Positions 5,810 to 22,700 are shown, counted from the stretch's first letter. The stretch is 62,139 bases of DNA from a virus (IMGVR_UViG_3300023179_000110:1-62139), one strand, 5' to 3'. Translations and numbers: made by a program. The notes: generated by a model not told the origin, from the letters alone.

Positions 5810-6004
5810 TTATCTACCTTGGTAAAAACCAGTGGTTGCACCAGTTGGATTAACTTTAGTAGCACCAGTAATTGTTCTTTTTGTGGCACCATTACCAATG
5901 CGTAAATTTAAAGTTGTTTGATTTGTAACCGCAGTAACAATCGCATGATACACACGACCAGATTCACGATAACGAACTGAAGTGCCAGCCTGAAAAACTT
6001 GCAT
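5810..6004 (-). CDS. Small hypothetical protein
   Basis: TAATG-coupled to dps; 64 aa. Confidence 0.6.
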   Translation of the reverse strand: MQVFQAGTSVRYRESGRVYHAIVTAVTNQTTLNLRIGNGATKRTITGATKVNPTGATTGFYQGR

Positions 6005-6501
6005 TACATCCCCAAACTAGAACGAAGTTGCCAATCCCATTTTTTATGCATGTCAATGCGTTCAGCAAGAAAATTTGCAATTCCTTGCTCATTAGATGAG
6101 TTTGCAGAAGCGAAAGCCATGTTTAATGTGTTAATAAGTTGAAGGTTTGCCTTCTGCAAATCTGATGCCATGGAACGGGGGTCATCAGCAGAACCAATGG
6201 TGGTTTCTGGCAGGGTTCGGTAAGCAATAAAATCTGACAACTTAAATGGTGCATCAACGCCAAGTTTCAACATGTTTTCAGCCATAGGGTCAATTGAACT
6301 GTAAACATCTTCATAAATAGATTCAAAAAGTTCGTGGTATTGAGCAAAATCCGAACCTTTAACATTCCAATGAAAGCCATGAGCACGAGTGTAAAAAGTG
6401 ACAACATCAGCCAAGGCTGTACGCAATAACGAGGCAACATCGCCAACGGCTTTATTCATCGCTCCAAAAGGAACATAATCACTATCGTTAGTCAGAAACA
6501 T
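6004..6501 (-). CDS. dps: Dps family ferritin-like DNA-protecting protein
   Basis: HGFHWNVKGSDFAQYHELFESIYE...IDPMAE and ERIDMHKKWDWQL are Dps signatures. Confidence 0.9.
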   Translation of the reverse strand: MFLTNDSDYVPFGAMNKAVGDVASLLRTALADVVTFYTRAHGFHWNVKGSDFAQYHELFESIYEDVYSSIDPMAENMLKLGVDAPFKLSDFIAYRTLPETTIGSADDPRSMASDLQKANLQLINTLNMAFASANSSNEQGIANFLAERIDMHKKWDWQLRSSLGM

Positions 6502-7267
6502 CTTCGTCAGACACCTTTACATCTTTTTTGGGCTTCTTCTTTTGCCCACCCATAACAGTATCCACATGAACAGTGTTCACTGTAGGACCCGACACGGTAG
6601 ATGAACTGTCTTCTTTAGCAACTGGCAAATCAACTTCAAGACGCTGGGCACGACCACCAATCGAATAACCCATCAACTTTCCAGCCTTGACCATTTCCCA
6701 AGCCCAAGGTTCCCAAACAACGCCAAGGAAAACTGTGTCTTTAGGAAAAGTTACATCTTCCATGGTTCCGTCAGATTTCTGCATGGGAACTGATACTTCG
6801 TAAGGCCACGCCATTACTTCAACCCATTCACCAGCAACGATGTCTTTATTGTGCTGTAAACGAATACGGCGGTCATCTTTACGCACATAATCCCAAACTG
6901 ATTTCTGCAACTCAGCAGAATCTGTCCATTCACCATGAGCATCAACACGGTCAGGAACATACATTGGACCTAGGGTGTATCGGTTTTCGTTGACAGCCTT
7001 GGAAACCAAAGACATTTTTTTAACTGGTGTTTCGATAAATTGGTCAAAAAATCCTTCGCTGTAGGAATCCTCAATGTCATAGTCGGCATCGCCCCATTCA
7101 GCAGGAATAGCCATAGCAATGTCGTAATTTTTTAAAGATTGATAAGTTTCTACAAGGTCATTGTAAATTTTTTTTGTTTCTTCGTTAGAAACATACTTAC
7201 TATTAGACGCTTCAATTCCTGCACAAACTTCCTGCGTCATTAAATCAATAATGCGAGCATCAATCAT
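6488..7267 (-). CDS. XkdF-like putative prohead serine protease with ~85-aa N-terminal extension
   Basis: RYTLGPMYVPDRVDAHGEW...RLQHN...WEMVKAGKLMGYSIGG is the XkdF pattern. Confidence 0.85.
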   Translation of the reverse strand: MIDARIIDLMTQEVCAGIEASNSKYVSNEETKKIYNDLVETYQSLKNYDIAMAIPAEWGDADYDIEDSYSEGFFDQFIETPVKKMSLVSKAVNENRYTLGPMYVPDRVDAHGEWTDSAELQKSVWDYVRKDDRRIRLQHNKDIVAGEWVEVMAWPYEVSVPMQKSDGTMEDVTFPKDTVFLGVVWEPWAWEMVKAGKLMGYSIGGRAQRLEVDLPVAKEDSSSTVSGPTVNTVHVDTVMGGQKKKPKKDVKVSDEDVSD

Positions 7268-9327
7268 TATTTAACTCCCCCTTTCTTAGTTGATGCAATC
7301 AAAACTGGCGGTGCCCCTTCGGGGCGAGTGTCATGATTTGTGTCGAATAACACAAAATTATCAAACTCTTTTGACATCTTTGGCATTATTGAAGACACAG
7401 ATTTGTGATTAGCCAAAAAATTATTTGCTGGAACTAATCCACGATTAGGGTCTTCAATCGCCCTTTGCATGTTTTGTTTCCAAGCCAAATCAATACTTGC
7501 ACTTACATAACAACCGTTAACTTTGTATCCAGCGTTTCTCGCTTTAGCAATTTTTTTGCCCAAACTGGCTTCACTTGAATTTCCAGTTCCATCTAAGAAA
7601 ATGTCCATGCCAGCCTTGGTAGCGGCCGCATCAATTGCTTTACCCAAATCAGATGATTCTTCGTGCGTCCAACCTGCAACATCCAATTTTCTGCCATTGT
7701 CAACAAATACTTGAAAATCTGGCAATTTTGCTTTTAACTCATCCGCATCAATAATAACAGCCTTGCCTTTTTCTGGCAAAATTACACCATGTTCTTTGGC
7801 TAACTCAAGGGCTTGTTGATTCCTTCTAATCGTTCCTTTTCCAGAACCGCCACCGCCACCCATCATGGTAAAAGTTGGGTCACTAGAACGAGGAATTCCT
7901 TTTAAGGCTTCTTTAATAATTTCGGCGTGTAAAGCCTCACGCTCAGGAGTGTAAATGTAATTACCATTTCCATCGTCCATCAAATAATGCCAAAGACCAG
8001 TTGTGTCAGCCGAAATTTCCTCGCCTTTGTATGTAATAGTGCGAGGTTTCGCCAAAACTTCTGGACGATTGCTTCCGTAACCCCAATCGTAGGTTTCAGG
8101 GTCAAAAGATTCGTTTCTTTTAACCTCAACTACATTTTGAGTTTTTAAAAATTCAGCCCATCGGTTATTTAAATCAGAAACAGTTGTTCTATCAACTGAT
8201 TTATTAATAAAATTTTGCCAAGCAGTGCTGTCGTGAATTTCAAGACCGTCAGCAAAGTTTTCACTTGCACCGCCATGTGCCCAGTTTCCGTGCGTTTTTT
8301 GGTCGTGATGTCCATGTTTCAACAATGGAACCGTGCTTAACTGAGGTATTACTGGGTCAACTAAAAGACGGCGATACCTGCGTTTTGCACCATTTAAAGC
8401 ATCAAAAAATCCTGCGTCTGTAACAATTTGGTCAGCATAAACTGGGCTGGTTGACCAATGCTGATTTTTACGGAATTCGTCTAACAATCCATGCAATTCT
8501 TCATGTCGTTTCATGACAGCAGGAATGGCAAAAGGGTTTGAATTCGTGCGTTTTAACTCAAGTCCTTGACCGTAGCCCTCGTTGTAAGACAACCGAATAG
8601 ATTTTTTACTTAAAGTTTTGCCAATCATTTGAAAATCAGAAGCACTTACAGAAGAGCCATGTGCCCAATCGCCGTGAGTTGATTGGTCGTGTTTGCCTTG
8701 CATGTGCTTAGACATGCCATTTAACAAATCTTCAGGAATCACCCAGAACTTGCACAAAGCCATGTGGTCAATTTGACCTTCAACAATCTCACAACCGCCA
8801 CCGCCTTCATAAAAAATGCAGTTGGCACACATCAAACCTTCATCAACAAACGGGTTATCTTCCATGTAATGTGCCCCGTTAGCATCTGAACTCTGATTAA
8901 ATTTGCCAACCGCTTCGGTTAAAGATTCCAAAAACTCGTAAATAGCATTTTGCGTGGGGTTTAATCTATCTTCGGGTTCGCCCTCTTTTTTAACGGTATC
9001 AAACTTTAGGGTGTAGCCATCAACCGTCAAAATAGTGGTTTTTGAAACTAAATCGGGATAACCCAACTCAGCATTGACCGTATCAACTACATCAGCAGGA
9101 ATTCCGTTAAAAGCCTTATTTACGGGGACATTGTTTTCAACGCCTACCTCAATAACAGCCCGATTCCATTCGTCCCCACTATGCCCATGGTCTAAACCAC
9201 GAACCAACAATTCCGTTGTAACAAGGTGGTGGGCTTGAACTTTTACGGGGTCATAAACATCCGCATGCAATGATTTATGCAATTCCTCTAATTGAGCATT
9301 GCTTAATTTGTTTAAATCAAATGACAT
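7267..9327 (-). CDS. Tagged polyprotein: His-rich N-domain, HiPIP-like domain, tag + unknown domain, tag + Zeta-toxin-like P-loop kinase
   Basis: CANC...C...C HiPIP pattern; two HDQxTHGxW tags; GGGGGSGKGT, IIDADELK, HEESS, LDGT Zeta motifs. Confidence 0.85.
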   Translation of the reverse strand: MSFDLNKLSNAQLEELHKSLHADVYDPVKVQAHHLVTTELLVRGLDHGHSGDEWNRAVIEVGVENNVPVNKAFNGIPADVVDTVNAELGYPDLVSKTTILTVDGYTLKFDTVKKEGEPEDRLNPTQNAIYEFLESLTEAVGKFNQSSDANGAHYMEDNPFVDEGLMCANCIFYEGGGGCEIVEGQIDHMALCKFWVIPEDLLNGMSKHMQGKHDQSTHGDWAHGSSVSASDFQMIGKTLSKKSIRLSYNEGYGQGLELKRTNSNPFAIPAVMKRHEELHGLLDEFRKNQHWSTSPVYADQIVTDAGFFDALNGAKRRYRRLLVDPVIPQLSTVPLLKHGHHDQKTHGNWAHGGASENFADGLEIHDSTAWQNFINKSVDRTTVSDLNNRWAEFLKTQNVVEVKRNESFDPETYDWGYGSNRPEVLAKPRTITYKGEEISADTTGLWHYLMDDGNGNYIYTPEREALHAEIIKEALKGIPRSSDPTFTMMGGGGGSGKGTIRRNQQALELAKEHGVILPEKGKAVIIDADELKAKLPDFQVFVDNGRKLDVAGWTHEESSDLGKAIDAAATKAGMDIFLDGTGNSSEASLGKKIAKARNAGYKVNGCYVSASIDLAWKQNMQRAIEDPNRGLVPANNFLANHKSVSSIMPKMSKEFDNFVLFDTNHDTRPEGAPPVLIASTKKGGVK

Positions 9328-9364
9328 TTGAACTCCTCACCGAAAGAATAGCAAACAAGGTTGA

Positions 9365-9436
9365 CTATTGAGGTTCCATCGGCTCAGGCAATTTTCTTGG
9401 GTCAATAATGTCCACTATTTCGTCTTTTTCGGTCAT
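9365..9436 (-). CDS. 23-aa peptide MTEKDEIVDIIDPRKLPEPMEPQ, putative zincin inhibitor
   Basis: Translated by hand; ATGA overlap with the stop of the 9433-10224 zincin. Confidence 0.55.
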   Translation of the reverse strand: MTEKDEIVDIIDPRKLPEPMEPQ

Positions 9437-10224
9437 ACTGGTATTCCTTTGTCTAAATAACCCTGTCTTAAATTATCAGCAACTTCTTTACCTGCCACAT
9501 GCTCCCAAATAAATAATTGATTACGAGCAAATTCAACTCCGTGACCTTCGTATTTATTATCCGCTTTTAACATGGTTGCATAGTGAGCAAGTTCATGAAT
9601 TAAGGTTGATTCATCTTTTGCATAATTTTTGTGAATCAAAATTTCATTAATTTCTTGATAACCTTTACTGCCACTTATTTTTATGCCCCAGCGATGCCTA
9701 CCAGCAAAACTGCCAGACTTTCTTACTGCTATTTTTAACTCAGGAACACGAGAACCATCGCCAAATTCAGCAATAAACCAATCACTGCTGGTAATTTCTT
9801 TGTAAAGATTTTTAATACCTTTTACTGTTCCATCAATGTGTTTTTTACCTAATTCTGAAACTTGTAAATCGTTTGCTGAAGACTGCCAATCGTCAAAATT
9901 TTTACTGTATTGCGTCCACGCCTTTTCGTATGCCTCATAAGAATCAAAATTTTCTCGTTTGGGTGCAACTGGAGGAGTTCCACTATCACGGTCAAATACT
10001 TCAGATTCAGCCTTGTAAATGTCACTTTGATAACGGTCTGAACCCAATTGCAAATCAACTCTGTCCCGAAAAACCAAATTACTACCAGAATCATTGACAG
10101 TTATGTCGTTGTTAGCCCAGTTGCCATGAGTCCTTTGGTCATGTTTGCCAGCAAGATGCTTGAAAACATTATTATTTTCTTCATCTATTAAAAACAAAGA
10201 CATTCTTTCTTTTAATTCACTCAT
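9433..10224 (-). CDS. Tagged SprT-like HExxH metallopeptidase
   Basis: Tag VFKHLAGKHDQRTHGNWA; LIHELAH...HGVEF. Confidence 0.85.
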   Translation of the reverse strand: MSELKERMSLFLIDEENNNVFKHLAGKHDQRTHGNWANNDITVNDSGSNLVFRDRVDLQLGSDRYQSDIYKAESEVFDRDSGTPPVAPKRENFDSYEAYEKAWTQYSKNFDDWQSSANDLQVSELGKKHIDGTVKGIKNLYKEITSSDWFIAEFGDGSRVPELKIAVRKSGSFAGRHRWGIKISGSKGYQEINEILIHKNYAKDESTLIHELAHYATMLKADNKYEGHGVEFARNQLFIWEHVAGKEVADNLRQGYLDKGIPV

Positions 10225-11129
10225 TTAATAAAAACGCCTTCTTCTTCTGTATTAAAATTTTTTGATGCAACAATTAACGGGTCATAAGGCAACTGATTTT
10301 GAATCACTGTTACTTCATAAAAATTATCGTTGATTTTTTCAACTTTTGAAACCGTGTATGTACCAGAAGCAATAACTTCATTGCCGTTTGACACTTCTTC
10401 GCTTTTATTGCTTGTATGTGGAACTAATGGTATTCCACGCAATCCATCAATTTTCATTAAAATGGATGTTTCTGCTGGGTTGCCATAATAATCTTTTGCA
10501 AAAGTTGTTGCCAGTTCTTCATCAGGAGTCCAAGATGCAATTCCTTCTTTAAATGTGGAACCAACCGTTGTTAATTTTTTAACTTGTTCAGAACCCCATT
10601 TACTGAAAGACAAACCTCTGTACATTTTTTCATTTAATGGTTTAGCGGTTGTCAAGGCTAAAAGAATTTGTTTAGTTGAATCAAAAATTTCTTTGTAGTC
10701 AACATCTCTTCTTATTTTGCCATCTTCATCTAATTTTGGATAATAATTGTCTGAAACATTAGTTAATACTCTGTAAGCACTACGAATGTTGTCAACATTG
10801 GCGTATGGGTATTTATTTGTTCCGCCTATCCAAGCATCAGCAAAAGCATTAATCATTGGAATTTGAGAATTATCAGCCCAGTTGCCGTGAGTTGACTGGT
10901 CGTGCTGACCTGCAAGATGTTTTTGAATTTTTTGCGTATCAAGCCAATCTAAAACATCCCCATTGGTCAAAGTAATAATTGAACTCAAAGACACTTTGCG
11001 ACCATCAGCCAATTGAAGCATGGTTTCAGGGGTCAATTCTCCGTCCCAAGACCAAGAACCGCCAAAATCAGGTGCAAGCAACTTAAACATAGTAACCCTT
11101 TTCAATGTGTTCCCCGACAACAACTTCAA
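10221..11129 (-). CDS. PDFGG domain + tag + R-S-E type ADP-ribosyltransferase-like domain (start probably ATG ~11090)
   Basis: MYRGL...IASWT...A..FA...NEVI..G..TV is the VIP2/exotoxin-type ART pattern. Confidence 0.8.
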   Translation of the reverse strand: MKLLSGNTLKRVTMFKLLAPDFGGSWSWDGELTPETMLQLADGRKVSLSSIITLTNGDVLDWLDTQKIQKHLAGQHDQSTHGNWADNSQIPMINAFADAWIGGTNKYPYANVDNIRSAYRVLTNVSDNYYPKLDEDGKIRRDVDYKEIFDSTKQILLALTTAKPLNEKMYRGLSFSKWGSEQVKKLTTVGSTFKEGIASWTPDEELATTFAKDYYGNPAETSILMKIDGLRGIPLVPHTSNKSEEVSNGNEVIASGTYTVSKVEKINDNFYEVTVIQNQLPYDPLIVASKNFNTEEEGVFIK

Positions 11130-14100
11130 TGCCTTTGCCAGCCAACATTTCCTTAGTAGCCTTAGTCAAACTTGTTGATTTTGGAATAACAATTGTGGCA
11201 ACATCATCCAACGATAAACCGCCATGAATTTGAGTTTCAACATAACCGTAAGTAGCAATTTCTCTTAAATCAGCCTTGCCACTGTATCCAGTTATTCCAC
11301 CCCACTCTGGTTTTCCAGTACTAATGCTGTTTTTCCAATTGTAAGTTTTGCCAGAACGATTTGAATTGTTAAAAGTGTTAATTAATAAGCCAAAATGAGT
11401 GTCCCATAAATCATTTACAGAAACTTTGCCATTAGCGTAATCTTCCAGCCAATGAGTTCCATTAAGAAATCCGTCTAAAGAATCGCCAATTGTTGCTGTT
11501 GTTCTATGTTTTACCGAATCTTTAAAAATTACTTGGGCATCGCCATAAGTTGATTCTTTAGAACTGCGTCCTATGACTCCGTAAACGGGACGCTTATCGT
11601 TAGGTGTTTCGCTCGGAATGCCCATAATGTCAAATTCAAATTCATTTCTTCTTTCCATGTATTTTTGCCTAGTAGCCCCTTTTCCAGACAAAGTGGTTTC
11701 ACTAGCAGTTCGATAATGGTCTTCAGTTATGAATTTTTTTAATTTACCTGTACTCATGGTTAAAGAAACATCATTATTATTTGCAATTTCTTGCATTTGG
11801 TCTAACAAACTTTGAGCCACGCCATCTATGACTTCGCCAACAGTTTGCCCACTTGGAAATTTAATTTGACGAATTTTATTTTGAACAAATTTATTTTCCG
11901 CAACAAGATAAGCCCGTGCTGATTGAAAATCTTGTTCAGCCCAAACATTTATGGCTTTTCTTCTCAACTCATCAATGTTTGAATCAGAAAATTCTTTGTT
12001 TTGTTCAATAATTTGTTTTGCCCACCAAGTATTTGCAATAGCCGTATCCATAAATTTTTTAGGGATTTGAGGATAATTTGGGTCGTTAAAAATGGTTTTT
12101 GTCAATTTTTTTATTGCGTCTAAACCCGAAAAATTTTCGGAACTTTTGGATGAATTTTTTAATGCTAAAACCGCATAATAAAATTCTGCTGTGGAAACAG
12201 GTGTTCCAACCCAACTTGTAGAATCTGTTTGCAAAATTCTTGCAATAGGTCCGAAACTGTTAGCAACATCTTCTTCATAAGACATAGCAGGAATTGAAGA
12301 AAAACTTTTTTTTCGCCCTGAAAAATCTAACTCATAAGGTCTGTCGGTTGAATGACCGTGTGCCCAGTTGCCATGACTGGACTGGTCGTGTTGTCCTGCA
12401 AAATGTTTAAAAAAAAACGAATTTACTGGAACCTTGACAATTACTGAGGTTTTGGCAACTTCTTGTAAATCTGTTCCGCCCAAGTCATAATTTCCTCGTC
12501 CGTCATCTCGTTTAACGGCTTCGGCGACTGAGCGATGTTGATTATTTCTTTTTTCGACTGTTCCACCAGTACCTCCTGTTTGAATCTCATCAAAGTTGAC
12601 GACATCCCAAATACTGATTTGGTTACGCCTTCTACCTAACGAAATTGCTTGTTTCTTGTCAACGATTTTGTCCGTAACATCCAAATGAACTCGTTGCTGG
12701 TCTTTTGGTATTTCTACCGTAACACCATTAACCGTTTTGGTTGTTTCGTGCCAAACACCGAGATAAGCACGACCAGAACCTAATTCTGCTTTGTTCTTAA
12801 CCAAGAACGCACCCAGAATTTTGGCTCCTTTATCCTCATTAAAGAAGTCTGATGCCATTACAACGGTGCCGAACTTGTCACTGTTTCGAGATACCATGTA
12901 GCCATCTGGGGGCAGTGAGCCGTCCGTTAACTTGATTGATAAACCACCATTTTCGGCTACTTGACTCAAAACATCATGAACAACTTCTGGTGCAACATGG
13001 CTGTTGAACCTGCGTCCGTGAGTTGATTGGTCGTGTTGACCTTGAAGGTGTTTCTCAACCTCGGTTGATTTAATCTTAGCCCGTAATACCGCAATGTCAA
13101 ATGCCAACATTTTCTTCATGTTTTCTTTATTTGACTCACCAAGAGCAATTGGCTTAATTCCAACGGTTTTATTCCAAGCCAAAACAACTTTAATTAATTC
13201 GTCATGAGGCAAATCAACTTTTAAAGCCTTCATTTTCACATTTTTATGTTTTGGTTTTAAACCAAGAAACAAAGCGGCCGCCCAGCGATGGTGTCCGTCA
13301 ATCACATAATCATCTTTAGAAATAGTAATTGGAGTATCACCAACTCCATCTTTTTCCATTGACCGCATAATTTTTCCAGATTTAGAAGCAGAAATTTCAG
13401 CCTGAATTGGGTGTAGTCCAAAGGGAGCAACATCAACCATTTCAACTTTAACTCCACGGTCTTGCATAGCCTTAATAAAATCATTTTGAGTTCCAGCAGG
13501 AATTTGAGGCATTTTGTCACGCATAATTCCAAGATTGTCCCTTGTGAAATACTGCGTTCCTAAAATTTCCAAATTAGTTAAATCGGGATTATCTTTGCGG
13601 TCAGCCATTGCATCCAACCATGCTGGAGCGTCAATTGGGCTAACAATACCTTCTTCGCCAGCAACTACTTTGTCGTAAGCGGTTTGAACTGGATGTGGAT
13701 ACGGATTGCCTTCGGCAGTGTTTTTACGGTCAACAGCATGTCCGTGATGTCCAGCCCAGTTGCCATGCGTGGCTTGGTCGTGCTGACCTGATAAATGTTT
13801 TTGAACTGCTTGCGGATAGTAAGACCATTCGTACAAAGAATTGCCATCAGTGTAAATTTCATTAGCGTGAACTGTGGTGTGCAAAATGTCGTAATCACCA
13901 AAACGAGCAGTCACACTACTTTCGCCATGTAATTTGGCGTATTCTTCGGAAATAGTAACCCAATCACCAGCATTAACTTTAGTAACGCCTTTGGGTACAG
14001 CACGATAAATGGTCACATGAGCATCGGGTTTATTACGAATACTTACAAGCAAATCATGGATTTTTTTATCTTCAGCCCTATTACTGCCACCGTGCCCATA

Positions 14101-14361
14101 AATTCTGGCACCATCAGAATCATAAACATCTTTTGGGTAAATGTTTCCATTGCCAGTTAAATCGTATGCAGGGGCACCATCTTCGGGTTCTGGAGGACGG
14201 TGACTCATTTGATAATCAGTTTCATTGTTGGCACCGCCATGTGCCCAATCGCCGTGTGAACTCTGGTCGTGTTGTCCTGCAAGATGTTTTTCAACTTTCA
14301 CACCATGTTTAACACCCAAATCGGGGTAAACCACATCAAAAGTCACATCATCTAAAATCAT
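11083..14361 (-). CDS. Tagged polyprotein with four cargo domains: ART-like, ParB/Srx-like, putative SAM-lyase-like, DUF3626-like
   Basis: Four tags; VTIYRAVP..GDWVT..YA..HG..EW; IDGHHRWAA; GYMVS..LGVW..LDVT..NQISIWD; RPVYG..YGD..RTT...DSL..YVETQIHGG. Confidence 0.85.
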   Translation of the reverse strand: MILDDVTFDVVYPDLGVKHGVKVEKHLAGQHDQSSHGDWAHGGANNETDYQMSHRPPEPEDGAPAYDLTGNGNIYPKDVYDSDGARIYGHGGSNRAEDKKIHDLLVSIRNKPDAHVTIYRAVPKGVTKVNAGDWVTISEEYAKLHGESSVTARFGDYDILHTTVHANEIYTDGNSLYEWSYYPQAVQKHLSGQHDQATHGNWAGHHGHAVDRKNTAEGNPYPHPVQTAYDKVVAGEEGIVSPIDAPAWLDAMADRKDNPDLTNLEILGTQYFTRDNLGIMRDKMPQIPAGTQNDFIKAMQDRGVKVEMVDVAPFGLHPIQAEISASKSGKIMRSMEKDGVGDTPITISKDDYVIDGHHRWAAALFLGLKPKHKNVKMKALKVDLPHDELIKVVLAWNKTVGIKPIALGESNKENMKKMLAFDIAVLRAKIKSTEVEKHLQGQHDQSTHGRRFNSHVAPEVVHDVLSQVAENGGLSIKLTDGSLPPDGYMVSRNSDKFGTVVMASDFFNEDKGAKILGAFLVKNKAELGSGRAYLGVWHETTKTVNGVTVEIPKDQQRVHLDVTDKIVDKKQAISLGRRRNQISIWDVVNFDEIQTGGTGGTVEKRNNQHRSVAEAVKRDDGRGNYDLGGTDLQEVAKTSVIVKVPVNSFFFKHFAGQHDQSSHGNWAHGHSTDRPYELDFSGRKKSFSSIPAMSYEEDVANSFGPIARILQTDSTSWVGTPVSTAEFYYAVLALKNSSKSSENFSGLDAIKKLTKTIFNDPNYPQIPKKFMDTAIANTWWAKQIIEQNKEFSDSNIDELRRKAINVWAEQDFQSARAYLVAENKFVQNKIRQIKFPSGQTVGEVIDGVAQSLLDQMQEIANNNDVSLTMSTGKLKKFITEDHYRTASETTLSGKGATRQKYMERRNEFEFDIMGIPSETPNDKRPVYGVIGRSSKESTYGDAQVIFKDSVKHRTTATIGDSLDGFLNGTHWLEDYANGKVSVNDLWDTHFGLLINTFNNSNRSGKTYNWKNSISTGKPEWGGITGYSGKADLREIATYGYVETQIHGGLSLDDVATIVIPKSTSLTKATKEMLAGKGIEVVVGEHIEKGYYV

Positions 14362-15059
14362 GAAAACACCCCATTGCCACTTGTGTCATAAGTAAAGAAA
14401 TCCAAAACATTAGCCTGTTTTTCTAACCCTTCATTGCGTAAAAGGTATTTCCAAGTGTCCAAAAATGGCAAATTATGACCGCCGTGACCAGCCTCACCTT
14501 TAATCCAGTTTCCTTCCAAAATGTGCGAAATTTCATGTAACAAAACAAATTGGCTAACACCTGAAGGTTTGTAAATTAATACGGGAATGTTTGCACCATG
14601 CAACGGATGACCTTCTGGGACATCTCCACGGGTAATTCCAGCCTCAATACCGTCAACTAAGTATTGGTCGTTTTCGTCAGGATACGGTTTCCAAACCCTG
14701 TTACCGTAACCGTATTTGGCAAATACTTCATCAACATAAGCCACAAGTTCTTTTGCATCAGTGAAAATTTTTCCTTGCCCAACTGCTTGCAAAGGTGCTG
14801 AATCCAAAGACAACCCTGCACCAAATTCAATGTTTTTATCGTCAGGGGCATCAGTTGGGACAACATCGCTCCAGTCTTTACTGTCTTTCCAAGGTATTGC
14901 TACACCAGTCAAATTATTTGGCTTATGGATAACACCACCATTTTTAGCCCAATTTCCGTGCGAACTCTGGTCGTGCTGTCCCTCTAAATGCTTGATTAAA
15001 ACAGCATCAGAAGATTCAACCACCCCAATGAACTTGGCGAGCCGTGCAATGCGTGACAC
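14358..15059 (-). CDS. Tagged SprT-like HExxH metallopeptidase
   Basis: GTG 15059 follows GGAGG; tag LIKHLEGQHDQSSHGNWA; LLHEISH...GHNLPF. Confidence 0.8.
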   Translation of the reverse strand: MSRIARLAKFIGVVESSDAVLIKHLEGQHDQSSHGNWAKNGGVIHKPNNLTGVAIPWKDSKDWSDVVPTDAPDDKNIEFGAGLSLDSAPLQAVGQGKIFTDAKELVAYVDEVFAKYGYGNRVWKPYPDENDQYLVDGIEAGITRGDVPEGHPLHGANIPVLIYKPSGVSQFVLLHEISHILEGNWIKGEAGHGGHNLPFLDTWKYLLRNEGLEKQANVLDFFTYDTSGNGVFS

Positions 15060-15128
15060 AAAACCTCCTGAAATACTAAACAAGAATACCTCAGAAGCAT
15101 TACCTCAAAAGGTCAACTCGCTTTAGAA

Positions 15129-15314
15129 CTAAACAGTATTTTCATTCCCTTGATTGAGCCACCATTCAAGAGCATCACCATTGGTGCGACTAATTATGTG
15201 ACTAAATAAAGTTTCTGACCCATCAGCAACAATAATTTTAGTTTCAGGAGTCAACTCACCGTCCCAAGACCAAGAACCGCCAAAATCAGGGCAAATAACT
15301 TTATGTTGGCTCAT
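15129..15314 (-). CDS. 61-aa PDFGG protein, putative partner/immunity of the upstream DUF3626-like domain
   Basis: PDFGGSWSWDGELTPET...DG...II..TNGD.L.W, nearly identical to the N-domain of 10221-11129. Confidence 0.8.
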   Translation of the reverse strand: MSQHKVICPDFGGSWSWDGELTPETKIIVADGSETLFSHIISRTNGDALEWWLNQGNENTV

Positions 15315-16843
15315 CCTTCTAACCCGTAACTTTCATAATCGGTTTTTTCAATTTGACTAATGTTAGGTTCAATAATTATTTTAATTCCTTGTTTTGTTAA
15401 CTTATTTTGCAATGCTTTAGGAATCGCCGTTTCGCTAGTAATAATAACTTCAGCAATGTCAGATGCTTTAACACCACCATGAACTTGTGCTTCCACATAA
15501 TTGTACATAGTGCTTTGTTTAAAATCATTTTTAGAACCAGTAATAAATTGGTTAACATCAAGATTTGAATTTGGATTATCATTTTTGACAGAAGTAAAAT
15601 TCAATTCATAATTTCTGTCATAAATTGACCTAGTGGTCATTTCGCCAGAATAATGCCAAAAAGTTTCAGGTGAAATTTTGCCGTCCCTGACTTCGGAAGC
15701 CAAAAAACCACCTTTTGCATTGCCATCTAAAGAATCATCAACAGTTAAAGTGGTTCTACTTTTAACTTCATCTTTTAAAACAATACGAACATCGCCATAA
15801 TTAACAGTATTTGCATTTGCCAAATAGCCGTAAACAGGTCGTTGCTCATTTGGAATGTCTTCTGGAACTCCCATAAGCGTTTCAGCCCGTTTACGAACTG
15901 CAATGTAATCATTTCTTGTACTGCCTTTGCCTACAGATGTAACTTCATAAACTGTTTTAAATCTTCCATCATCTATTAAACGCTTTAATCGTGAAGCAGA
16001 TGTTTGAATTGTAATTGGTTGTTCTGTAGCCATTTTTTTCAATTTACTCAATTGAGATTTAGCCAACCCGTCCATAATTTCTTTAATGGTTTCACCCGAT
16101 TGCATTTTAATTTCGCCAAGTTTTTTAATAACAAAAGCATTTTCTTTTAAAGCATACTGTCGAAATTCTTCCGCAGAAACAACTTTATTTAAATTATGAA
16201 ATTCTAATTCTTGTTCACCGTACATACCGCCTTTAGGCATTGGTGGGTCAACTAAACCTTCATCACGAGTAGCCCATCTGTACTGGATACTATTTCGCCA
16301 TTCTTCAAGTTGCCATTTTTGCCATCTTTCTTCCCATTCTTTAGGCATAGCAGGATAATCAGGGTCAGATTTTATTTTTTCTAAAACCCTATTTTTGTAA
16401 TTTCCCCAATCTCTCCATTTTCCTTCTTCAAGGTAAGTCGCCTCTTCGCCTGTCTGTTGTGCGTAGCGACTATTAGCCAAAGTAAGCATTGAAGCAAAAT
16501 AACCATCATAAGTTCTTTTATTTAAATCTAAAGGTATGGCATGAATGTTTGGGTCGCTTATTTGAAAATAATCATACAAATCTCTGGTAATGCCACCGAA
16601 GGAATAAATTTTGTCATCGTATCTACCTAGTAAAGTTCCTTTATGATAAGCCAAAATCGGTTTAAGTTCATACGGCATTTCGCCATGTGCCCAGTTACCG
16701 TGGGAACTTTGGTCATGCTGACCTGCCAGATGCTTGACCAAACTTAAAGGAGGAACAACAAAAATTGTTTTAGCCACAGGTTTATCTAAGCCAAAAGTAC
16801 AACCAATTTTTTGACCCGAAAACATTGGAGGACTTTGCAACAT
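15311..16843 (-). CDS. Tagged DUF3626-like (putative ART-fold) protein
   Basis: Tag; RFKTVYE...RPVYGYL..YGDVRIVLKDEVKSRTTLTVDDSL...YVEAQVHGG. Confidence 0.85.
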   Translation of the reverse strand: MLQSPPMFSGQKIGCTFGLDKPVAKTIFVVPPLSLVKHLAGQHDQSSHGNWAHGEMPYELKPILAYHKGTLLGRYDDKIYSFGGITRDLYDYFQISDPNIHAIPLDLNKRTYDGYFASMLTLANSRYAQQTGEEATYLEEGKWRDWGNYKNRVLEKIKSDPDYPAMPKEWEERWQKWQLEEWRNSIQYRWATRDEGLVDPPMPKGGMYGEQELEFHNLNKVVSAEEFRQYALKENAFVIKKLGEIKMQSGETIKEIMDGLAKSQLSKLKKMATEQPITIQTSASRLKRLIDDGRFKTVYEVTSVGKGSTRNDYIAVRKRAETLMGVPEDIPNEQRPVYGYLANANTVNYGDVRIVLKDEVKSRTTLTVDDSLDGNAKGGFLASEVRDGKISPETFWHYSGEMTTRSIYDRNYELNFTSVKNDNPNSNLDVNQFITGSKNDFKQSTMYNYVEAQVHGGVKASDIAEVIITSETAIPKALQNKLTKQGIKIIIEPNISQIEKTDYESYGLEG

Positions 16844-16849
16844 ACTAAA

Positions 16850-18529
16850 TCACTTCTTCCATTTGTACTGCATACCCCATTTATCTTCTTTAGCCAAAGC
16901 CTGAACAATAGGAATTTCAGACTTACCATCAGTCATAAACCATTCAGCAAACGCTTCAGCATAACCCTCGCCAGTATTGCTTCTACCATACGGACTTAAC
17001 TGATTTTCATGAGCCATTAACATTAAACCTGTAGTTTGTTCGTTTTTGTAACCGCTTCCAGCCATTGTTCCATTGCCACCTTTATGGAAAAGGGCATCGT
17101 AATTAGTTGCATGACCCCATTCATGAGCCAAAAAGTATTCCATAGCAAAAAATTGTTTGGCATTGGCTGAAGGCATCCAACTCTGACGAGCCGTATCTTC
17201 ATCAGCGTAATGATTCATGTCTTCAGGACGAACAGCAATAATAACTTTGTGAATTGCAGGTTTTACTAATTCACGAACAGTTCTAAGTTGTTTTTCATCA
17301 AATACCGTTTTCATTGTTTCTGGTTGAGATAAATTAACAGTCCAACCTCGTTGCATTTCGGAATCGTAATCAAAATCATTACTTACAACAATTTTTACTT
17401 CAGACATTGGTGACAACGGTGCAATTGTTTGCAAATCATGAACTAAAGCCAACACATCTCGTTTTTGGTCTTCAGTAATGTTGTCCCTGTTGTCAAAAAA
17501 AGTTGCAAAACTAGAACCGTTAATTTTCGATTCATGAACATCAGCGTTTTCAAGTACAAGGTCATTTACGCCAAAAGCATGCCTAAAATTAGTTTTTGTT
17601 TTAGCCCAATTGCCGTGGGTAGATTGGTCATGCTGACCTGCAAGATGTTTACTTACATCAGGCAACTCAATAAAAGAAGGGGGTGGTGTTTTACTAAAAG
17701 TATCAGCAATTAAAATACTTGAACCCATAGTTTTAACTAAATTAAAAACACCAGTATCCCAACCATACTTTGAAGCCATTTCTTGAACATGAGGCAAAGA
17801 GGTTTGTCCAGCCGAAAAAAACCATTCCGCAAAAGCCTCAGCATAAGACTCCATTGTGTTTTCCATCCCATAAGTAGTTTGTCCTTCTTTTTTCCATTTC
17901 CATTCTGATTTGCTTTGAGCAAGATAATTTTTGTATTCATCATGAGCCAACTGGTCATCAACGAGTTGGCTTTGTGTTCTTTTATCAAGAGCGTGACCCC
18001 ATTCGTGGGCTAAAACAGACATGATGTAATTTGCTTTTGAATCTGCACGGGCAGGGTCGCCTCCCCATAAATTATGTTCTTCCTGTATTGCTGTTTCCAT
18101 ACTAAGAACTATTTCGCCTTTACCCAAAGTACAAAAACCTACAACACCAGACAAATGACCTTTGGCTTTGTAGTCTTCCATTTTGCTGTCATCAAATTCA
18201 ACACGCATTCCTTCAATTGGAAAATGCGTTTGCAATTCGGCAATAGTTTGATAAATAAGTTTTTTTGTATCATCACTTATTGTTCCATTTACTTCTTCAA
18301 AACCAACAAAAACTCTAGGAAATTCACCAGAAACGATAACATCGTGAGCAATGCCCACCAGTGTTTCATCAGTTATGTCTTGTACTGTGTATTTTGCTTC
18401 GCCATGTGCCCAGTTTCCGTGCGAACTCTGGTCATGCTGTCCAGCAAGATGTTTATTTACAGATAAAGAACGCAACCAAAAAGCATTAGCACCAGCATCA
18501 ATGTCAATTATCAACTTAACCACCACCAA
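16850..18529 (-). CDS. Tagged polyprotein with two lethal-factor-like HEWGH metallopeptidase domains
   Basis: Two tags; LAHEWGH ... YG..N..E.YAEAFAEW occurs twice. Confidence 0.88.
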   Translation of the reverse strand: MVVVKLIIDIDAGANAFWLRSLSVNKHLAGQHDQSSHGNWAHGEAKYTVQDITDETLVGIAHDVIVSGEFPRVFVGFEEVNGTISDDTKKLIYQTIAELQTHFPIEGMRVEFDDSKMEDYKAKGHLSGVVGFCTLGKGEIVLSMETAIQEEHNLWGGDPARADSKANYIMSVLAHEWGHALDKRTQSQLVDDQLAHDEYKNYLAQSKSEWKWKKEGQTTYGMENTMESYAEAFAEWFFSAGQTSLPHVQEMASKYGWDTGVFNLVKTMGSSILIADTFSKTPPPSFIELPDVSKHLAGQHDQSTHGNWAKTKTNFRHAFGVNDLVLENADVHESKINGSSFATFFDNRDNITEDQKRDVLALVHDLQTIAPLSPMSEVKIVVSNDFDYDSEMQRGWTVNLSQPETMKTVFDEKQLRTVRELVKPAIHKVIIAVRPEDMNHYADEDTARQSWMPSANAKQFFAMEYFLAHEWGHATNYDALFHKGGNGTMAGSGYKNEQTTGLMLMAHENQLSPYGRSNTGEGYAEAFAEWFMTDGKSEIPIVQALAKEDKWGMQYKWKK

Positions 18530-19721
18530 AATGACTCATGATGCCAGCCAAAGCAGACCTAGGTTGACTTACCCAAACATTTGCTTGAATTGTTCCACCA
18601 AGTAAAACATGTTCTTGTTCAACTTCTGCACCTAACCCAGTAGCGTAAGTAGAAAAAACATTTTCTACAGGAACTACAATTTTAGTAACAGCATTGCCAA
18701 AAGTTTTAGCCACACTTTCCTTACTTGTCCAGCAACTCAAAGGTTGCATGCGAATTGTTTGTTTTGATTCTGTTCCATACAAACTTTCATCAAGTAAATC
18801 AAAGCCACGCCATAACTCCACAGCCTTGATGCCTTCGTCAGCAAAAGTTTTTTGAGTTTCCTCATACATAGCCGTAGTAATAGACTGCAAAACATTATGA
18901 TTTTTAACTAAAATTTTTGCAACTTGAGATGCAATTTTTTCAGGATGCCCAGTAACAAAAGTATTTTTCAACCCAAAATCCTCACGGACGACATCATTTA
19001 ACGCATAATACAAAGGATTAGAGTTCTGCAACTTAGCCCATTGTTCCATGACTTCAACAACAGCAAATTGCTTAATCATTTTTTCTTTTTGAGCAACAGT
19101 TTGCGTTTTATTATTAGTTCCATTTAAAGAAGAATTAGTTCTATCAACCCAAAGAGTGTTGTAATAAGACCATTTAAAAACAGCGTTAGGGTCATTGATG
19201 GCTTCTATTATTTGTTGAGGAGTTGTAAAAGTTGCAGTTCCTCCTGTTTTTACCGATTCTTCAGATACATAATTGATGCCATTAGAAAAACCTTCTGGAA
19301 TAATCATTGGTGTATTTAAAAATTCTTCAATAGGAACATCTGTAAGATGTTTTACAACATTGTTGGATGCAATCCATACCGTTTTATCTTTAGATGAAAA
19401 ATTACTGGAATTGCCAACTTGTTCATAAAATTCTTTAGTTGATGGTCTGGGAGCAATACTGTAATAATCTGCTTCAACATCATGTTGTGCCCAGTTCCCG
19501 TGTGAACTCTGGTCGTGTTGTCCTGACATGTGCTTGGCAAAAGCATCAACTACTGTCCAATTACCAACTTTTTGCCATTTATCAAATAGCCCAACTGTGC
19601 TTGTTGTGCCATTTTTCTGGCGTAAATACCCGTATGGATAACCGTCAGCATCAACGAAATCAAAAATCAACTCGGCTCCGTCAGCCCTTACAGCGTAAAC
19701 ACTACCTTTGGTTAGTTCCAT
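18516..19721 (-). CDS. 60-aa N-domain + tag + R-S-E ADP-ribosyltransferase-like domain
   Basis: LWRGF...LSCWTS...A..FG...EQEHVLL (ExE). Confidence 0.82.
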   Translation of the reverse strand: MELTKGSVYAVRADGAELIFDFVDADGYPYGYLRQKNGTTSTVGLFDKWQKVGNWTVVDAFAKHMSGQHDQSSHGNWAQHDVEADYYSIAPRPSTKEFYEQVGNSSNFSSKDKTVWIASNNVVKHLTDVPIEEFLNTPMIIPEGFSNGINYVSEESVKTGGTATFTTPQQIIEAINDPNAVFKWSYYNTLWVDRTNSSLNGTNNKTQTVAQKEKMIKQFAVVEVMEQWAKLQNSNPLYYALNDVVREDFGLKNTFVTGHPEKIASQVAKILVKNHNVLQSITTAMYEETQKTFADEGIKAVELWRGFDLLDESLYGTESKQTIRMQPLSCWTSKESVAKTFGNAVTKIVVPVENVFSTYATGLGAEVEQEHVLLGGTIQANVWVSQPRSALAGIMSHFGGG

Positions 19722-19723
19722 AA

Positions 19724-22700
19724 TTAATACTCTACCACCCTAATTCCCTTGGGAACAAGAGGGCTGATGTCAGCAAAACTGTCGGAAGGAATGTAAACAG
19801 CCTCAACATCACTCAATTTTGCTCCATCGTGAATTTGGGCTTCAAAATAAGAACCTTCATTAAGAAATCCAATTTCATAAGATTCATTGTTCCAGCCTTC
19901 GTCTTTTGCTATGTTGTACAGAATTCTGTCTGAGGCTCGCCAAGCATCGTAAGGGGTAATTTCTTTTTGAGTCATAGAAACAGGAATGCAACCAGTTCCC
20001 AAAGAATCCCCAACTGTCACGGTTGACCGAGGTTTAACATTATCTTTAAAAACTATTCGGATGTCGCCATACTGCCACGGTCCATTAATTAAAACATTTT
20101 CATCTAAATCATCTTCCGAAACATAACCATAAAGAGGGCGTTTAGAAACAGGTTCGTTTATGGGAATACTTTGACAACGCAACTCACTAGCAAGACGGCT
20201 TGCTTTACTAAATAACCCATTGCTTTTTTGTGTTTCAAATTGTGTTTTAAATCTTTGGTCATCGCTTTGTAATAACTCAGTAAACGATTCTTCGTCAATA
20301 GCCATGCAAATTTTTCCATCTGTTTGCATGTTTTTTAAATCATCAGCAATAAAACTTTGATAAAGCAACTCAGAATTATCTAATTTGCGATAAGTGGCTA
20401 ATTTAACTACTTCGTCAGATAATCTACGAAGCATTGCTTCATACATAATGACTGCGGAATTGTCTTGAGTAATAACTAAAGCATTTCTTTCCCCCTTAAA
20501 TGTGTTATCGTCACCACCACCAGTTTTTAAAAAAACAGCATTTGGATAAACTTTTTTAACTTGTTCTTGCAATTCTTTGCAAATTTTAGAATTAGCGAAA
20601 TCATCTGTATGAAAAAATTGCACCAGTATGTCTTCAGATAAACTTCCAGCACTTAACTGATAAGAGTCTGTACTAATTTTGTCAGCCAAATCAATAGAAA
20701 ATTTCTTAACAGCATTTAAAAATGTTGTTGTGTCAGCAAAATCATGTACCGCACCGTGCGACCAATTGCCGTGAGTGGATTGGTCATGTTGTCCTAAATA
20801 ATGTTTTGACAATGAACTTGGATTAGTCAAAACAGAAGTAAACGCATCTACTCGGTCAAACGGAATTGGCAAATTTGTTTTTTCATAGCCATCAAAATCC
20901 AAACGCCAATTGTCAACGGGGTCATAACGAAAACGAACAATTCGATAATTGTCCCCATTGGTAGGAGCGTAAAATGCTCCCGTTGAACGATGACTGGCAA
21001 CTGTTCCTTCGTTATTATCCAAATTCATTCTGGCATCTGATTGAAAAAATCCTCGTTCTTTTGCTTGATTGAACTCGGCTTCCGATACGACACGGTACAA
21101 ATGTTTCAAAGGTTTTCGAGCAATAATTTTTCCGTAAATTGGAGAAGATACTCTTTCGGAATCTGGAACTTTAATCCATTCTTGCGGAGTTACTGCCATT
21201 ACTTCTAAAACTTCAGGAGCAGATTGACCATCCCGTGTAGAAGCCATACGCAATGCAGTTTGTCCTTCAATCAAGTTGCCTCTTGAATCGTATCTTTCAG
21301 GATGTGCATTACGAGGAGATTGTAAAGATTTAGATTCTTCCGTCAAAATAGCATTCCAAGCAGATTCATTATCGGGTGAATTTAATTGAATTTCTTTGCC
21401 ATCAGCCCAATTGCCGTGGGTAGATTGGTCGTGCTGACCAGCCAAATGTTTTTCAACTGAATTAGGATTTTTAACTACTAAAGCACCAGCATTTAAAACA
21501 ACCATTTCTCGGTCAGGCAAACTTGTATCGGCTGGGTCATAAAGCATTGGACTGTCATTAATTGCGTCATAGCCCATTGCCAAAGCCATAAGATTTCTAG
21601 TTGTTAATCTATCAGTAAAAAACCAACTTGTTGGAAAATCTGTTAAAGCCGTATGACGAAGTAAATTAATTTGAGATTCTAGCAATCCACTATTTGCCAA
21701 TACCAAATTTGCTTCAGAAGAAGGAATAGTTAAAATTTTTGCATTAGGTTTAAAAGCCATTTTAACTATTTGTTTTTCATCACTTTTGTAACCCCAAATT
21801 TCAGCCTCTTTTTTCGTATGAGCACCATAAAGACCAATTCCATTTCTACCCATAGAAATGTAAGGCAACTCCGAAGCCATAAATTGTTTGATTTTATCTT
21901 CAGCAGATAATCTAATGTTGTCTGAAGTTTCCAAATCAAAAGCAGAACCTTGCTGAAAAGTTCGCCAAAATTCCATACCCTGTGAAGTATCACCAAAAGT
22001 AGGTTTACCAGTTTTGCCTGTGGCTTTTAAAACATCTTGCAAAGTTTTACGCCAAACATCAAGGCTGTCGTATGGTTTATTCGCGTTAATTATTGACGCA
22101 AGTTGCTGAATGCTAATTTCATTTGACCCATCACCATCAGCCCAGTTACCGTGTGAACTCTGGTCATGTTTACCCTGAAGATGTTTAACCAAAAAAGACT
22201 TAACGGGAACTTTTACAATTACTGAAGATTTAGCAACATTATTTAATAACGCTTCAGTATCAATGTTTGAATACTGTTTAACCCAAGCAAGTTCTTGTTC
22301 ATACTCTGGAATTGGATTTCCGAAAAGTTCAAATTTTCCTCTTTCTCTAGCAAGTTTTATTTTTGTTGCTTTTTGTTCTCTTGTTGCTGGATGAGTACTT
22401 GGAAAATGAACAACAATTCCAGCCTTTGCACCTGCTTGAAGAATTTTTTCTTTATTTATTTTTGAAACTTGTCCGTTAATAATAATTTCTTGAACATCTT
22501 TAGGAGTTAAACCACCAAAAATTTGAAACTCTGGATAATCATCAGAGGTGGTGTAAATAATGTCATTTGGCAAACTTTCTTTGTCCCCTAAAATTTGTTC
22601 ATTAGTAATTTTACCTGTTGCTGAAACAGGAGTTTGCTGATAAAGCAAACTATCTGAATTAGTAAAAGTTGAGCGTTTTTTTACTTCATCTTTTAAAACA

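Follow-up and report, generated by a model that had tools for sequence, protein, structure and literature searches.

A phage gene array in which small putative cognate partners follow enzymes that may be packed in the capsid

We analyzed the viral DNA stretch IMGVR_UViG_3300023179_000110:1-62139 (62,139 nucleotides, nt; hereafter the window), in which ten genes, g01-g10, form an array of cargo domains, each preceded by a 16-residue tag. The tag has the consensus KHLAGQHDQSSHGNWA and occurs in 18 copies in g01-g10 (HDQ..HG pattern); a degenerate DNA pattern of it gave 11 matches in the window and 0 in 100 shuffles. Each unit of tag and enzyme appears to be followed by a small element that is specific for the enzyme family. 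With moderate confidence, we read the array as a set of effector and cognate-partner cassettes for capsid-packed enzymes, in which the partner would bind and inhibit its enzyme.

The array holds about 18 cargo units in 10 genes, with two to four cargo domains per polypeptide in g01, g03, g07 and g10. By all-against-all BLAST and Pfam searches, the cargo was assigned to DUF3626 (four domains), a DRAT-like ADP-ribosyltransferase (ART; g02), an R-S-E type ART core (g08), HEWGH zincins (two, g03), SprT-like zincins (two, g06 and g09) and a Zeta kinase (g10), several domains being left without any family. Using the tag pattern, we retrieved 24 further stretches from IMG/VR, cut the arrays of these stretches and of the window at their tags, and clustered the cargo by BLAST. 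This gave 81 gene junctions, of which 69 were unique, and 2346 junction pairs for comparison; two segments were called similar when their score within a 90-residue span exceeded the 99.9th percentile of shuffled scores. The original prediction from the window held that the segment before the first tag of a gene tracks the preceding cargo, and the junctions bear this out: similar segments were found in 52 of 142 pairs with the same upstream and different downstream cargo, and in 4 of 200 pairs with different upstream and the same downstream cargo, figures to be taken as descriptive counts and not as probabilities because the pairs are not phylogenetically independent. Two of the four exceptions come from a split cluster and two from protease sequence shared inside the 90-residue span. 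When only fused forms are considered, the figures are 36/100 for the same upstream and 0/47 for the same downstream cargo. A counter-example to cargo tracking is the strand SVIVKVPV, which precedes the tag after two unrelated cargo domains (DUF3626 g01_c1 and g07_c3); it is probably part of an extended tag, since it resembles the leader of the first tagged gene in relatives.

Across the 24 loci and the window, each family that ends a gene is followed by an element of its own: SprT in 11/11 junctions, with the next cargo coming from four families or being absent, DUF3626 in 10/10, Zeta in 4/4, cargo cluster C10 in 4/4, cluster C01 in 12/12, and HEWGH and DRAT-ART in 3/3 each. The g06-type zincin has its peptide in 3/3 junctions, the next cargo being C19 or C23. 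Where no tagged gene comes next, the partners persist as solo open reading frames (ORFs). Phages whose tag is of another type, or that have no tag, possess them as well, and linkage to the tag is therefore no explanation for them. From sequence comparison, the view that the pre-tag segment belongs functionally to the upstream cargo, whatever follows, is supported. Cluster C01 (224-650 amino acids, aa) is absent from the window; the element after it is a solo acidic ORF of 48-79 aa in 12/12 junctions (L006-L009, L011, L012, L014, L015, L021, L023-L025), and the two are a candidate for a further effector-partner pair.

In the window, the cargo, the elements and the protease that ends the series are arranged as follows, in gene order.

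19724-23113, minus strand: g01, first tagged gene after MuF, with the generic leader MKSVYVVVPVS, four tags and four cargo domains.
19727-20758, minus strand: g01_c4, last cargo of g01, DUF3626/SopF-like.
19536-19721, minus strand: g02 N-terminal 62-aa domain, beginning MELTKGSVYAVRADG, putative type A partner of the preceding DUF3626, fused before the g02 tag.
18519-19487, minus strand: g02 cargo, DRAT-like ART (Pfam PF07357, E value 2.7e-07).
18455-18529, minus strand: g03 N-terminal 25 aa, ..KLIIDIDAGANAFWLRSLS, following the g02 ART.
17651-18406, minus strand: g03 cargo 1, HEWGH zincin, with the in-frame C-terminal tail ILIADTF at 17696-17716.
16853-17602, minus strand: g03 cargo 2, second HEWGH zincin, ending in a stop codon.
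16736-16843, minus strand: g04 N-terminus, with the putative zincin-cognate peptide ..GQKIGCTFGLDK, then the generic strand TIFVVPPLSLV, then the tag.
15314-16687, minus strand: g04 cargo, DUF3626/SopF-like.
15129-15314, minus strand: g05, solo and untagged 61-aa PDFGG domain, putative type B partner; its ATG overlaps the g04 stop (ATGA).
14358-15083, minus strand: g06, with the generic leader ..SRIARLAKFIGVVESSDAVLI, the tag and a SprT-like zincin (HEISH).
14290-14361, minus strand: g07 N-terminal 24 aa, beginning MILDDVTFDVVYPDLG, putative cognate peptide of the g06 zincin.
11083-14361, minus strand: g07, with four tags and four cargo domains, the last of which (g07_c4, 11086-12360) is DUF3626.
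10923-11090, minus strand: g08 N-terminal PDFGG domain, putative type B partner before the tag, with its ATG at 11090.
10224-10874, minus strand: g08 cargo, R-S-E type ART core (by alignment).
10162-10224, minus strand: g09 N-terminal 21 aa, acidic, MSELKERMSLFLIDEENNNVF, following the g08 ART.
9436-10113, minus strand: g09 cargo, SprT-like zincin (HELAH; Pfam PF10263, E 1.6e-06, and alignment).
9365-9436, minus strand: solo, untagged 23-aa ORF MTEKDEIVDIIDPRKLPEPMEPQ, putative SprT-cognate peptide, overlapping the g09 stop (ATGA).
7267-9327, minus strand: g10, with a 206-aa untagged N-terminal domain, two tags, a small cargo and a Zeta-toxin-like kinase.
7270-8277, minus strand: the Zeta-toxin-like kinase of g10 (Pfam PF06414, E 3.6e-20, and alignment to PezT).
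7013-7267, minus strand: g11 N-terminal 85 aa, putative Zeta-cognate domain fused to the prohead protease.
6488-7012, minus strand: g11 XkdF-type prohead protease domain (Pfam PF14550, E 5.6e-12, residues 86-211).

The 12 junction distances, from the end of the stop to the next start, are +2, -14, +6, -4, +45, -4, -8, -4, -4, +37, -1 and -14, so that the junctions described earlier as mostly overlapping or abutting are indeed so (10/12 within -14 to +6 nt of the upstream stop). A programmed frameshift joining cargo to peptide was considered and rejected, since the junction offsets occupy both alternative frames (-1, -4, -8, -11 ... and +2, +6). Several items of the original prediction stand as they were put: both HEWGH zincins are followed by the I(A/G)(D/C)TF motif (ILIADTF in frame, KIGCTFG in the g04 N-terminus), and the 85-aa extension of the protease after Zeta is present in g11. 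Others stand in part. The two PDFGG domains and the domain of about 60 aa after DUF3626 are all present, one PDFGG domain being the solo untagged ORF g05 and not the start of the next gene; both MxxxDxxphiDphiphixP peptides after SprT are found, the one after g09 forming a 23-aa ORF of its own. The short acidic peptides expected after ARTs, namely the 25-aa g03 and the 21-aa acidic g09 N-termini, are there too and form the weakest item. What has to be given up is the statement that each gene begins with an inhibitor, as g01, g06 and g10 start with generic or unrelated leaders. Toxin-immunity pairs offset by one gene describe several fused junctions; g05 and the 23-aa ORF are separate, and HEWGH and ART elements are mostly in-frame tails in relatives, so the offset is one of several layouts and not a rule.

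The window alone could not distinguish function from segmental duplication, as it offers two examples per class and motifs of 5-13 residues, and the g04_c1/g07_c4 pair with its PDFGG partners looks exactly like a segmental duplication. In the relatives, homologous cargo is mostly followed by the same partner families, the check that had been suggested, and wider scans were made for SprT, Zeta, DUF3626 and HEWGH. A wider scan for SprT in IMG/VR returned 64 loci, 59 of them evaluable. An IV(D/E/C)P...P peptide was recognized by eye at the SprT stop in 58/59, the remaining locus ending at the junction; regular expressions recovered it in 36/59 (strict) and 56/59 (looser) loci. A hidden Markov model (HMM) built from 10 of these peptides matched the junction in 30 of 48 independent loci at an independent E value (i-E) below 0.01 and in 34/48 at i-E<1, with no match away from junctions in 354,203 aa of six-frame translation. 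The SprT domains have diverged to 29-39% identity, yet the peptide keeps one Asp/Glu column, which is occupied by Cys in L028, L031, L037, L045 and L080 (L080 has VIVCPDP where its near relative L075 has VITDPIQDP). In the window, the MxxxDxxVDIIxP peptide after the g09 SprT domain is the solo 23-aa ORF and not the start of g10. Spurious stops introduced by misassembly were rejected as a source of this arrangement: the stop right after the SprT domain recurs in 59/59 evaluable contigs.

The HExxH motif of the window zincins reads HEWGH twice (g03), HELAH (g09) and HEISH (g06), and its H, E and H are invariant in two zincin alignments. Zincin 1 of g03 continues in frame into ILIADTF, and zincin 2 is followed by KIGCTFG across the gene boundary; aligned with ILVSDTF, FLVKDTF, FIVYDNF, FVVYENF and NICDFG, these tails share a column of Asp, Glu or Cys. 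Distant phages without the tag have small ORFs after the zincin in which we found by eye VIADG, VITDT, ILVTDRF, IIAET, LIR[DE]Q, EVLCAT and IFICST. At 14 distant untagged HEWGH loci, an ORF of 26-70 aa (longer in L093-L095) overlaps the zincin stop and opens with a similar motif, as judged by eye. It is plausible from the alignments that the Asp/Glu/Cys column of both zincin peptides is a metal ligand: exchange among these three residues is what such a ligand would show, and in this the peptides resemble the switches of cysteine- and aspartate-switch zymogens. An AlphaFold2 (AF2) model of g03 residues 1-320 from 13 sequences, a weak test, had a mean predicted local distance difference test score (pLDDT) of 60.6, with 70-87 in the zincin core.

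SopF is an ADP-ribosyltransferase. DUF3626 is described as the family to which SopF, a Salmonella effector, belongs (PMC6682159). In the window, g04 is followed by the 61-aa g05, g07_c4 by the PDFGG domain of the g08 N-terminus, and g01_c4 by the 62-aa g02 N-terminus. The PDFGG domains of g05 and g08 are 59% identical over 51 aa, and the DUF3626 domains upstream of them 30%. The best 80 of 135 DUF3626 relatives were kept for a wider scan, and 61 of them were evaluable; of the others, 12 reached the end of the locus, 4 read on in frame over more than 200 nt and 3 lacked an ORF. One of three small-domain families follows in 45/61: type A (..RADG..ARGYW) in 24, type B (..TNGDxLxW, including PDFGG) in 15 and type C (..KDGSPY) in 6. 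Among the 45 partnered loci, the partner is a solo ORF in 17, is fused to this tag in 20 and to a tag of another type in 1. The type A domain follows the same DUF3626 subtype before three different cargo families and is a solo 58-aa ORF in L004. TP901-1 ORF34 and Nodularia phage gp020 also come after DUF3626 genes. A word-based search for relatives of g05 in a set of 5.8 billion proteins, which missed the L002 relative, found only g05 and g08 of the window, both among proteins of near length and among longer ones, so the solo PDFGG form is rare. In the window, g05 and g06 share a reading frame, with TAG, TAA and TGA between them within 45 nt (15084-15131, minus strand); this spacer may be what is left of a PDFGG-tag-cargo fusion that decayed, or the split may be deliberate.

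For the ARTs, the comparison was made by eye. In L002 and L003, the same ART family has a 60-70-aa element after it, and the 25-aa N-terminus of g03 resembles the first part of this element (3/3 junctions). The g08 cargo has no Pfam match; its motifs YRG, SWT and NEVIASG presumably mark an R-S-E type ART core. Relatives of the g08 cargo have an in-frame acidic tail, PFI[HR]D..EDV, to which the 21-aa N-terminus of g09 bears a weak resemblance, and the two may be homologous.

The Zeta kinase gives the most regular case. In 21/21 further IMG/VR loci, the start of the ORF after Zeta falls between -31 and +2, and the ORF begins with a single alignable domain of some 60-85 residues, which is fused to the XkdF protease in 12 loci, is a solo ORF (69-105 aa) in 8, and is fused to a protein with another tag type in 1. 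Where C10 cargo stands before the protease, the protease carries a different extension (MRYFVK...), which in L003 is a solo 75-aa ORF; the extension is thus set by the upstream cargo. The original prediction expected cognate pairs to score best on co-folding. For the single pair run, the Zeta kinase (336 aa) with g11 residues 1-90, each with a 20-row alignment, the interaction prediction score from aligned errors (ipSAE) was 0.84, 0.86 and 0.85, against 0.00 in three controls. The mark for such co-folds is reached by 58/80 solved complexes and 2/110 mismatched pairs, rates that hold only roughly here as our alignments were custom-made. The pLDDT of the partner was 77 or higher, and the runs had 79% or more of their contacts in common. 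On the kinase, the predicted interface covers residues 142-143 in the glycine-rich loop before K147, residues 177-179 including D179, and the invariant positions 205, 208-209, 231-232 and 282-283; K147 and D179 align with K45 and D66 of PezT. Asp67 of zeta is the proposed catalytic base, and antitoxins of this type are described as blocking the ATP site (PMC3062530). The model supports binding of the g11 extension over the active site (P-loop and catalytic Asp). A profile search found no relative of this extension in the PDB (best E 2.6), and at E<=1 Pfam gave no match besides a chance TPR match. The protease domain of g11 (gene at 6488-7267, minus strand) also matches the C-terminal parts of phrog_14859, annotated 'RNA ligase' (E 7e-58), and phrog_1530, annotated 'DNA methyltransferase' (E 2e-29); N-terminal fusions of XkdF-type proteases seem common, and those PHROG annotations may describe the fused part only.

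None of nine partner elements could be given a named family: Pfam returned chance-level matches only (E<=1), PHROGs had no match for g05, g02, g06 and g08, and the ESM Atlas gave unnamed clusters only, at 0.82-0.84 and thus under the 0.9 lead level.

The elements are of two sizes: those of the two zincin families are peptides of 15-30 aa, and those of Zeta, the DRAT-like ART and the SopF-like DUF3626 are domains of 55-95 aa. They take one of four positions: the in-frame end of the cargo, a translationally coupled solo ORF, the N-terminus of the next tagged protein ahead of its tag, or, after the last cargo, the N-terminus of the prohead protease. On our preferred reading, they would be inhibitors. 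Translational coupling would make the partner in step with its effector, and its binding would keep the enzyme inactive in the producing cell and in the procapsid. The zincin element may act as a plug that places its Asp, Glu or Cys side chain on the catalytic zinc, and the Zeta element as a lid over the ATP and substrate site. The least supported step is release, for which maturation proteolysis might cut the partner from the tag or digest it together with the protease; alternatively, unfolding on ejection might part the two chains. If the tag is a capture or cleavage site in maturation, like the capsid targeting sequence of T4, fusion to it would tie inhibitor removal to head maturation, and fusion to a self-digesting protease would do likewise. 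Taking the partners as inhibitors is plausible on sequence, on the model and by analogy; it rests on the logic of MuF toxins, the Bxa/Bsi case, the predicted contacts in the Zeta active site and the ligand-like column of the zincin peptides.

A number of observations weigh against this reading. The junction pairs, as said, are not phylogenetically independent, and internal cargo domains of g01 and g07 are without a recognizable partner. In database relatives, HEWGH elements are mostly in-frame cargo tails, and the elements of the g08-type ART are mostly in-frame C-terminal cargo tails as well; being in frame, both could be mere parts of the cargo fold or linkers. In the AF2 model, the HEWGH tail strand (residues 272-276) has a pLDDT of about 59 and its flanks 41-45. 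Among the DUF3626 loci, 16/61 fall into 'other', three of which are type A by eye, and the regular expressions for the partner families were written after the data had been seen. Support for binding comes from the model of the Zeta pair, one of five pair types, and its score may partly be memory of structures, since Zeta-antitoxin complexes have been solved (1GVN, 2P5T). A tight inhibitor packed together with its enzyme would also block that enzyme in the next host unless removed, and such removal is conjectural.

A broader version of the inhibitor reading, which we offer tentatively and expect to be wrong rather than right, is that the array belongs to a general latency system in which every packed enzyme would be made with a cognate plug. 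The plugs, placed ahead of the next tag or on the self-destroying prohead protease, would be wired to the maturation machinery, so that capsid maturation would remove them and arm the effectors inside the sealed head. The protease-fused Zeta partner would then be an antitoxin whose lifetime is set by virion assembly.

The main rival, which fits most of the same data and which we nevertheless regard as rather unlikely, is that the partners are positive factors, either chaperones or adaptors for solubility, procapsid delivery or preparation for ejection, much like secretion chaperones, or the last element of the cargo fold supplied in trans. Covariation with the cargo, solo forms and predicted binding suit a chaperone equally well, the in-frame position of most HEWGH and g08-type ART elements suits a piece of the fold, and fusion to the prohead protease, which enters the procapsid, could serve delivery. 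However, every cargo already has its own tag, and it is not evident how solo partners, being untagged, would enter the capsid. In the Zeta model, the partner touches the P-loop and the catalytic Asp and not a distal surface, and the Asp/Glu/Cys column in two unrelated zincin peptides points to a metal site.

It is improbable that the zincin-adjacent peptides are recognition and cleavage sites of the zincins themselves, by which the array would be cut into single domains. Autoproteolytic release by MPTase domains has been proposed by Iyer et al. (PMC5512222), and the peptides are extended, proline-rich and located at domain boundaries; but in 59/59 evaluable SprT loci zincin and peptide are already parted by a stop codon, the peptide has nothing to release where it is a solo ORF (23-52 aa), as in the window and several relatives, and the DUF3626, ART and Zeta partners would not be covered. 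Hitch-hiking, in which cassettes recombine at conserved tag DNA and the pre-tag segment is a neutral linker, would suit the 18 repeats of the tag with their similar DNA and the closest DUF3626 pair, which with its PDFGG partners looks duplicated, yet it is already largely refuted and has very little probability left, given that specific motifs are kept while SprT cargo falls to 29-39% identity, that PDFGG is 59% identical where its cargo is 30%, that solo ORFs are intact with coupled starts, and that the same pairs occur in phages with another tag type or none.

Outside the array, the tag is found in two more proteins, encoded at 40695-41204 and 40069-40677 (both minus strand), near the N-terminus and after a helical leader, as LEKHGGGSHDQSSHGNWATGG and the variant LEKHGSGDQSAHGNWAHGG. 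Both genes lie directly downstream of the large terminase, far from the array. The tag, present in 20 copies altogether, is therefore a signal of general use in this phage. The profile phrog_2859 (unknown function, length 740) matches only the tag region (g09 residues 14-39, E 5e-4; g03 residues 291-312, E 2e-4), so that the tag is already present, unrecognized, within a PHROG family. A letter search for the tag in the literature gave unrelated matches only. Other phages have a different motif between partner element and cargo, namely LLKYNPDQPRDxxGRF, KYAEGQARDSHGRF or EEDHPRDxxGRF (loci L067, L070, L075, L080, L123, L137 and L161; proteins P0060, P0062 and P0074). Its spacing is like that of KH..GQHDQ..HGNW, and the window tag may therefore be one variant of a much wider motif family.

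Every gene of interest in the window is on the minus strand. Two genes precede the array.

24123-25574, minus strand: portal, directly before MuF in gene order.
23110-24117, minus strand: MuF, a separate gene, with no cargo fused C-terminally to it.

The unusual genes g01-g10 fill about 16.6 kb between MuF and the XkdF protease. Past g10 come the XkdF-type prohead protease g11, a Dps/ferritin-like gene, the scaffold gene and the major capsid protein gene. The Dps/ferritin-like gene (6004-6501, minus strand; Pfam Ferritin, E 3.3e-14) stands between protease and scaffold and overlaps the protease stop by 14 nt; a ferritin-like protein among head-assembly genes brings encapsulin cargo to mind. 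The portal shares 58% identity with Arthrobacter phage portals, for instance that of Kovu, and the tagged array is absent from Kovu, a cultured relative by portal identity. A WhiB-family gene (28429-28761, minus strand; Pfam E 9.8e-15) indicates an actinobacterial host, though the G+C content of the window is only about 36-47%. The 206-aa untagged opening domain of g10 (8710-9327, minus strand) contains CANCxFYxGGxGC...C; its sole Pfam match is a weak one to HIPIP (E 0.03), and domains of this type are kept at the start of the last gene before the protease in many relatives (for example MADISSKLINLSAEKL... in L008, L011 and L021).

Phages that pack toxic enzymes must make them late, in concentrated form and alongside their own structural proteins, but still have to deliver them in an active state. 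Small cognate partners encoded right after each effector are a widespread answer suggested by the window and by over 200 related loci. If this is true, it would add new small inhibitor families for SopF-like ARTs, Zeta kinases and two zincin families, give the N-terminal extensions of XkdF-type prohead proteases an unexpected function, and offer a testable version of how injected phage effectors stay silent and are then armed. The genomic rule for finding such inhibitors would be simple, to read past the stop codon, in any frame, even within the next gene. For annotation, this is a warning that the initial 20-90 residues of genes like these, as well as ORFs of only 23-50 aa, may be functional units themselves.

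Several known systems invite comparison. Matrix metalloproteinases and astacins are zincin zymogens with a cysteine- or aspartate-switch propeptide, and the peptides described here likewise are short, have one conserved Cys, Asp or Glu and lie beside a zinc protease. In contrast to an N-terminal propeptide, they are C-terminal to the protease or on another polypeptide, and zinc ligation by them is putative. The internal proteins and Alt of phage T4 have an N-terminal capsid targeting sequence that is removed by the prohead protease. There too, a short N-terminal signal brings enzymes, among them an ART, into the head, from which they are injected; T4, however, has a single signal per protein, and we know of no inhibitor modules for these proteins. 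AvrRxo1-ORF1 with its downstream ORF2 is, like epsilon/Zeta and PezAT, a system to compare with the Zeta pair.

Toxin-immunity pairs beside MuF, polyvalent proteins and Zeta antitoxins are already known. Epsilon/Zeta and PezAT (PMC3062530) resemble the present pair in that the kinase is of the Zeta type, with the Walker A lysine and catalytic Asp, and in that a small protein partner covers the nucleotide site, here as predicted by the model. They differ in that our partner is encoded downstream instead of upstream, has no detectable similarity to epsilon or PezA, and in this lineage is an N-terminal extension of the capsid maturation protease. Polyvalent proteins (Iyer et al. 2017, PMC5512222) likewise unite a number of effector domains (ART, ParB-like, Zeta, metallopeptidases) within a single polypeptide, have a late or head gene context and are thought to be delivered with DNA; in the accessible parts of that description, neither cognate partners between domains nor a repeated tag appear. 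In the papers searched, main text only, we found no fusion of a cognate partner with the following tagged gene or with a capsid protease, no antitoxin fused to a prohead protease, no virion-packed MuF effectors with such fusions, no downstream Asp/Glu/Cys peptides for the two zincin families, and no small-domain families after SopF-like domains.

The closest counterpart is the MuF polymorphic toxins, for which a small putative immunity ORF was reported after 89.4% of 191 genes (Jamet et al. 2017, PMC5576092), and among which Bxa, an ART of a prophage, is inhibited by Bsi, a protein that binds it (Bxa/Bsi/BAH, PMC11699363). Both systems place ARTs and peptidases beside portal and MuF genes, with a small ORF directly after the toxin that is taken, and for Bsi shown, to neutralize it by binding; in the array, too, the downstream element varies with the toxin family and not with other neighbors. 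They differ in that MuF is separate here and the cargo carries a repeated 16-aa tag instead of a MuF fusion, that about 18 cargo units are gathered in ten genes, and that the partner, in place of a separate ORF, is in many cases the N-terminal part of the following tagged protein or of the prohead protease. What is new here is the layout, in which the partner is often joined to the next cargo protein ahead of its tag, or else to the prohead protease.

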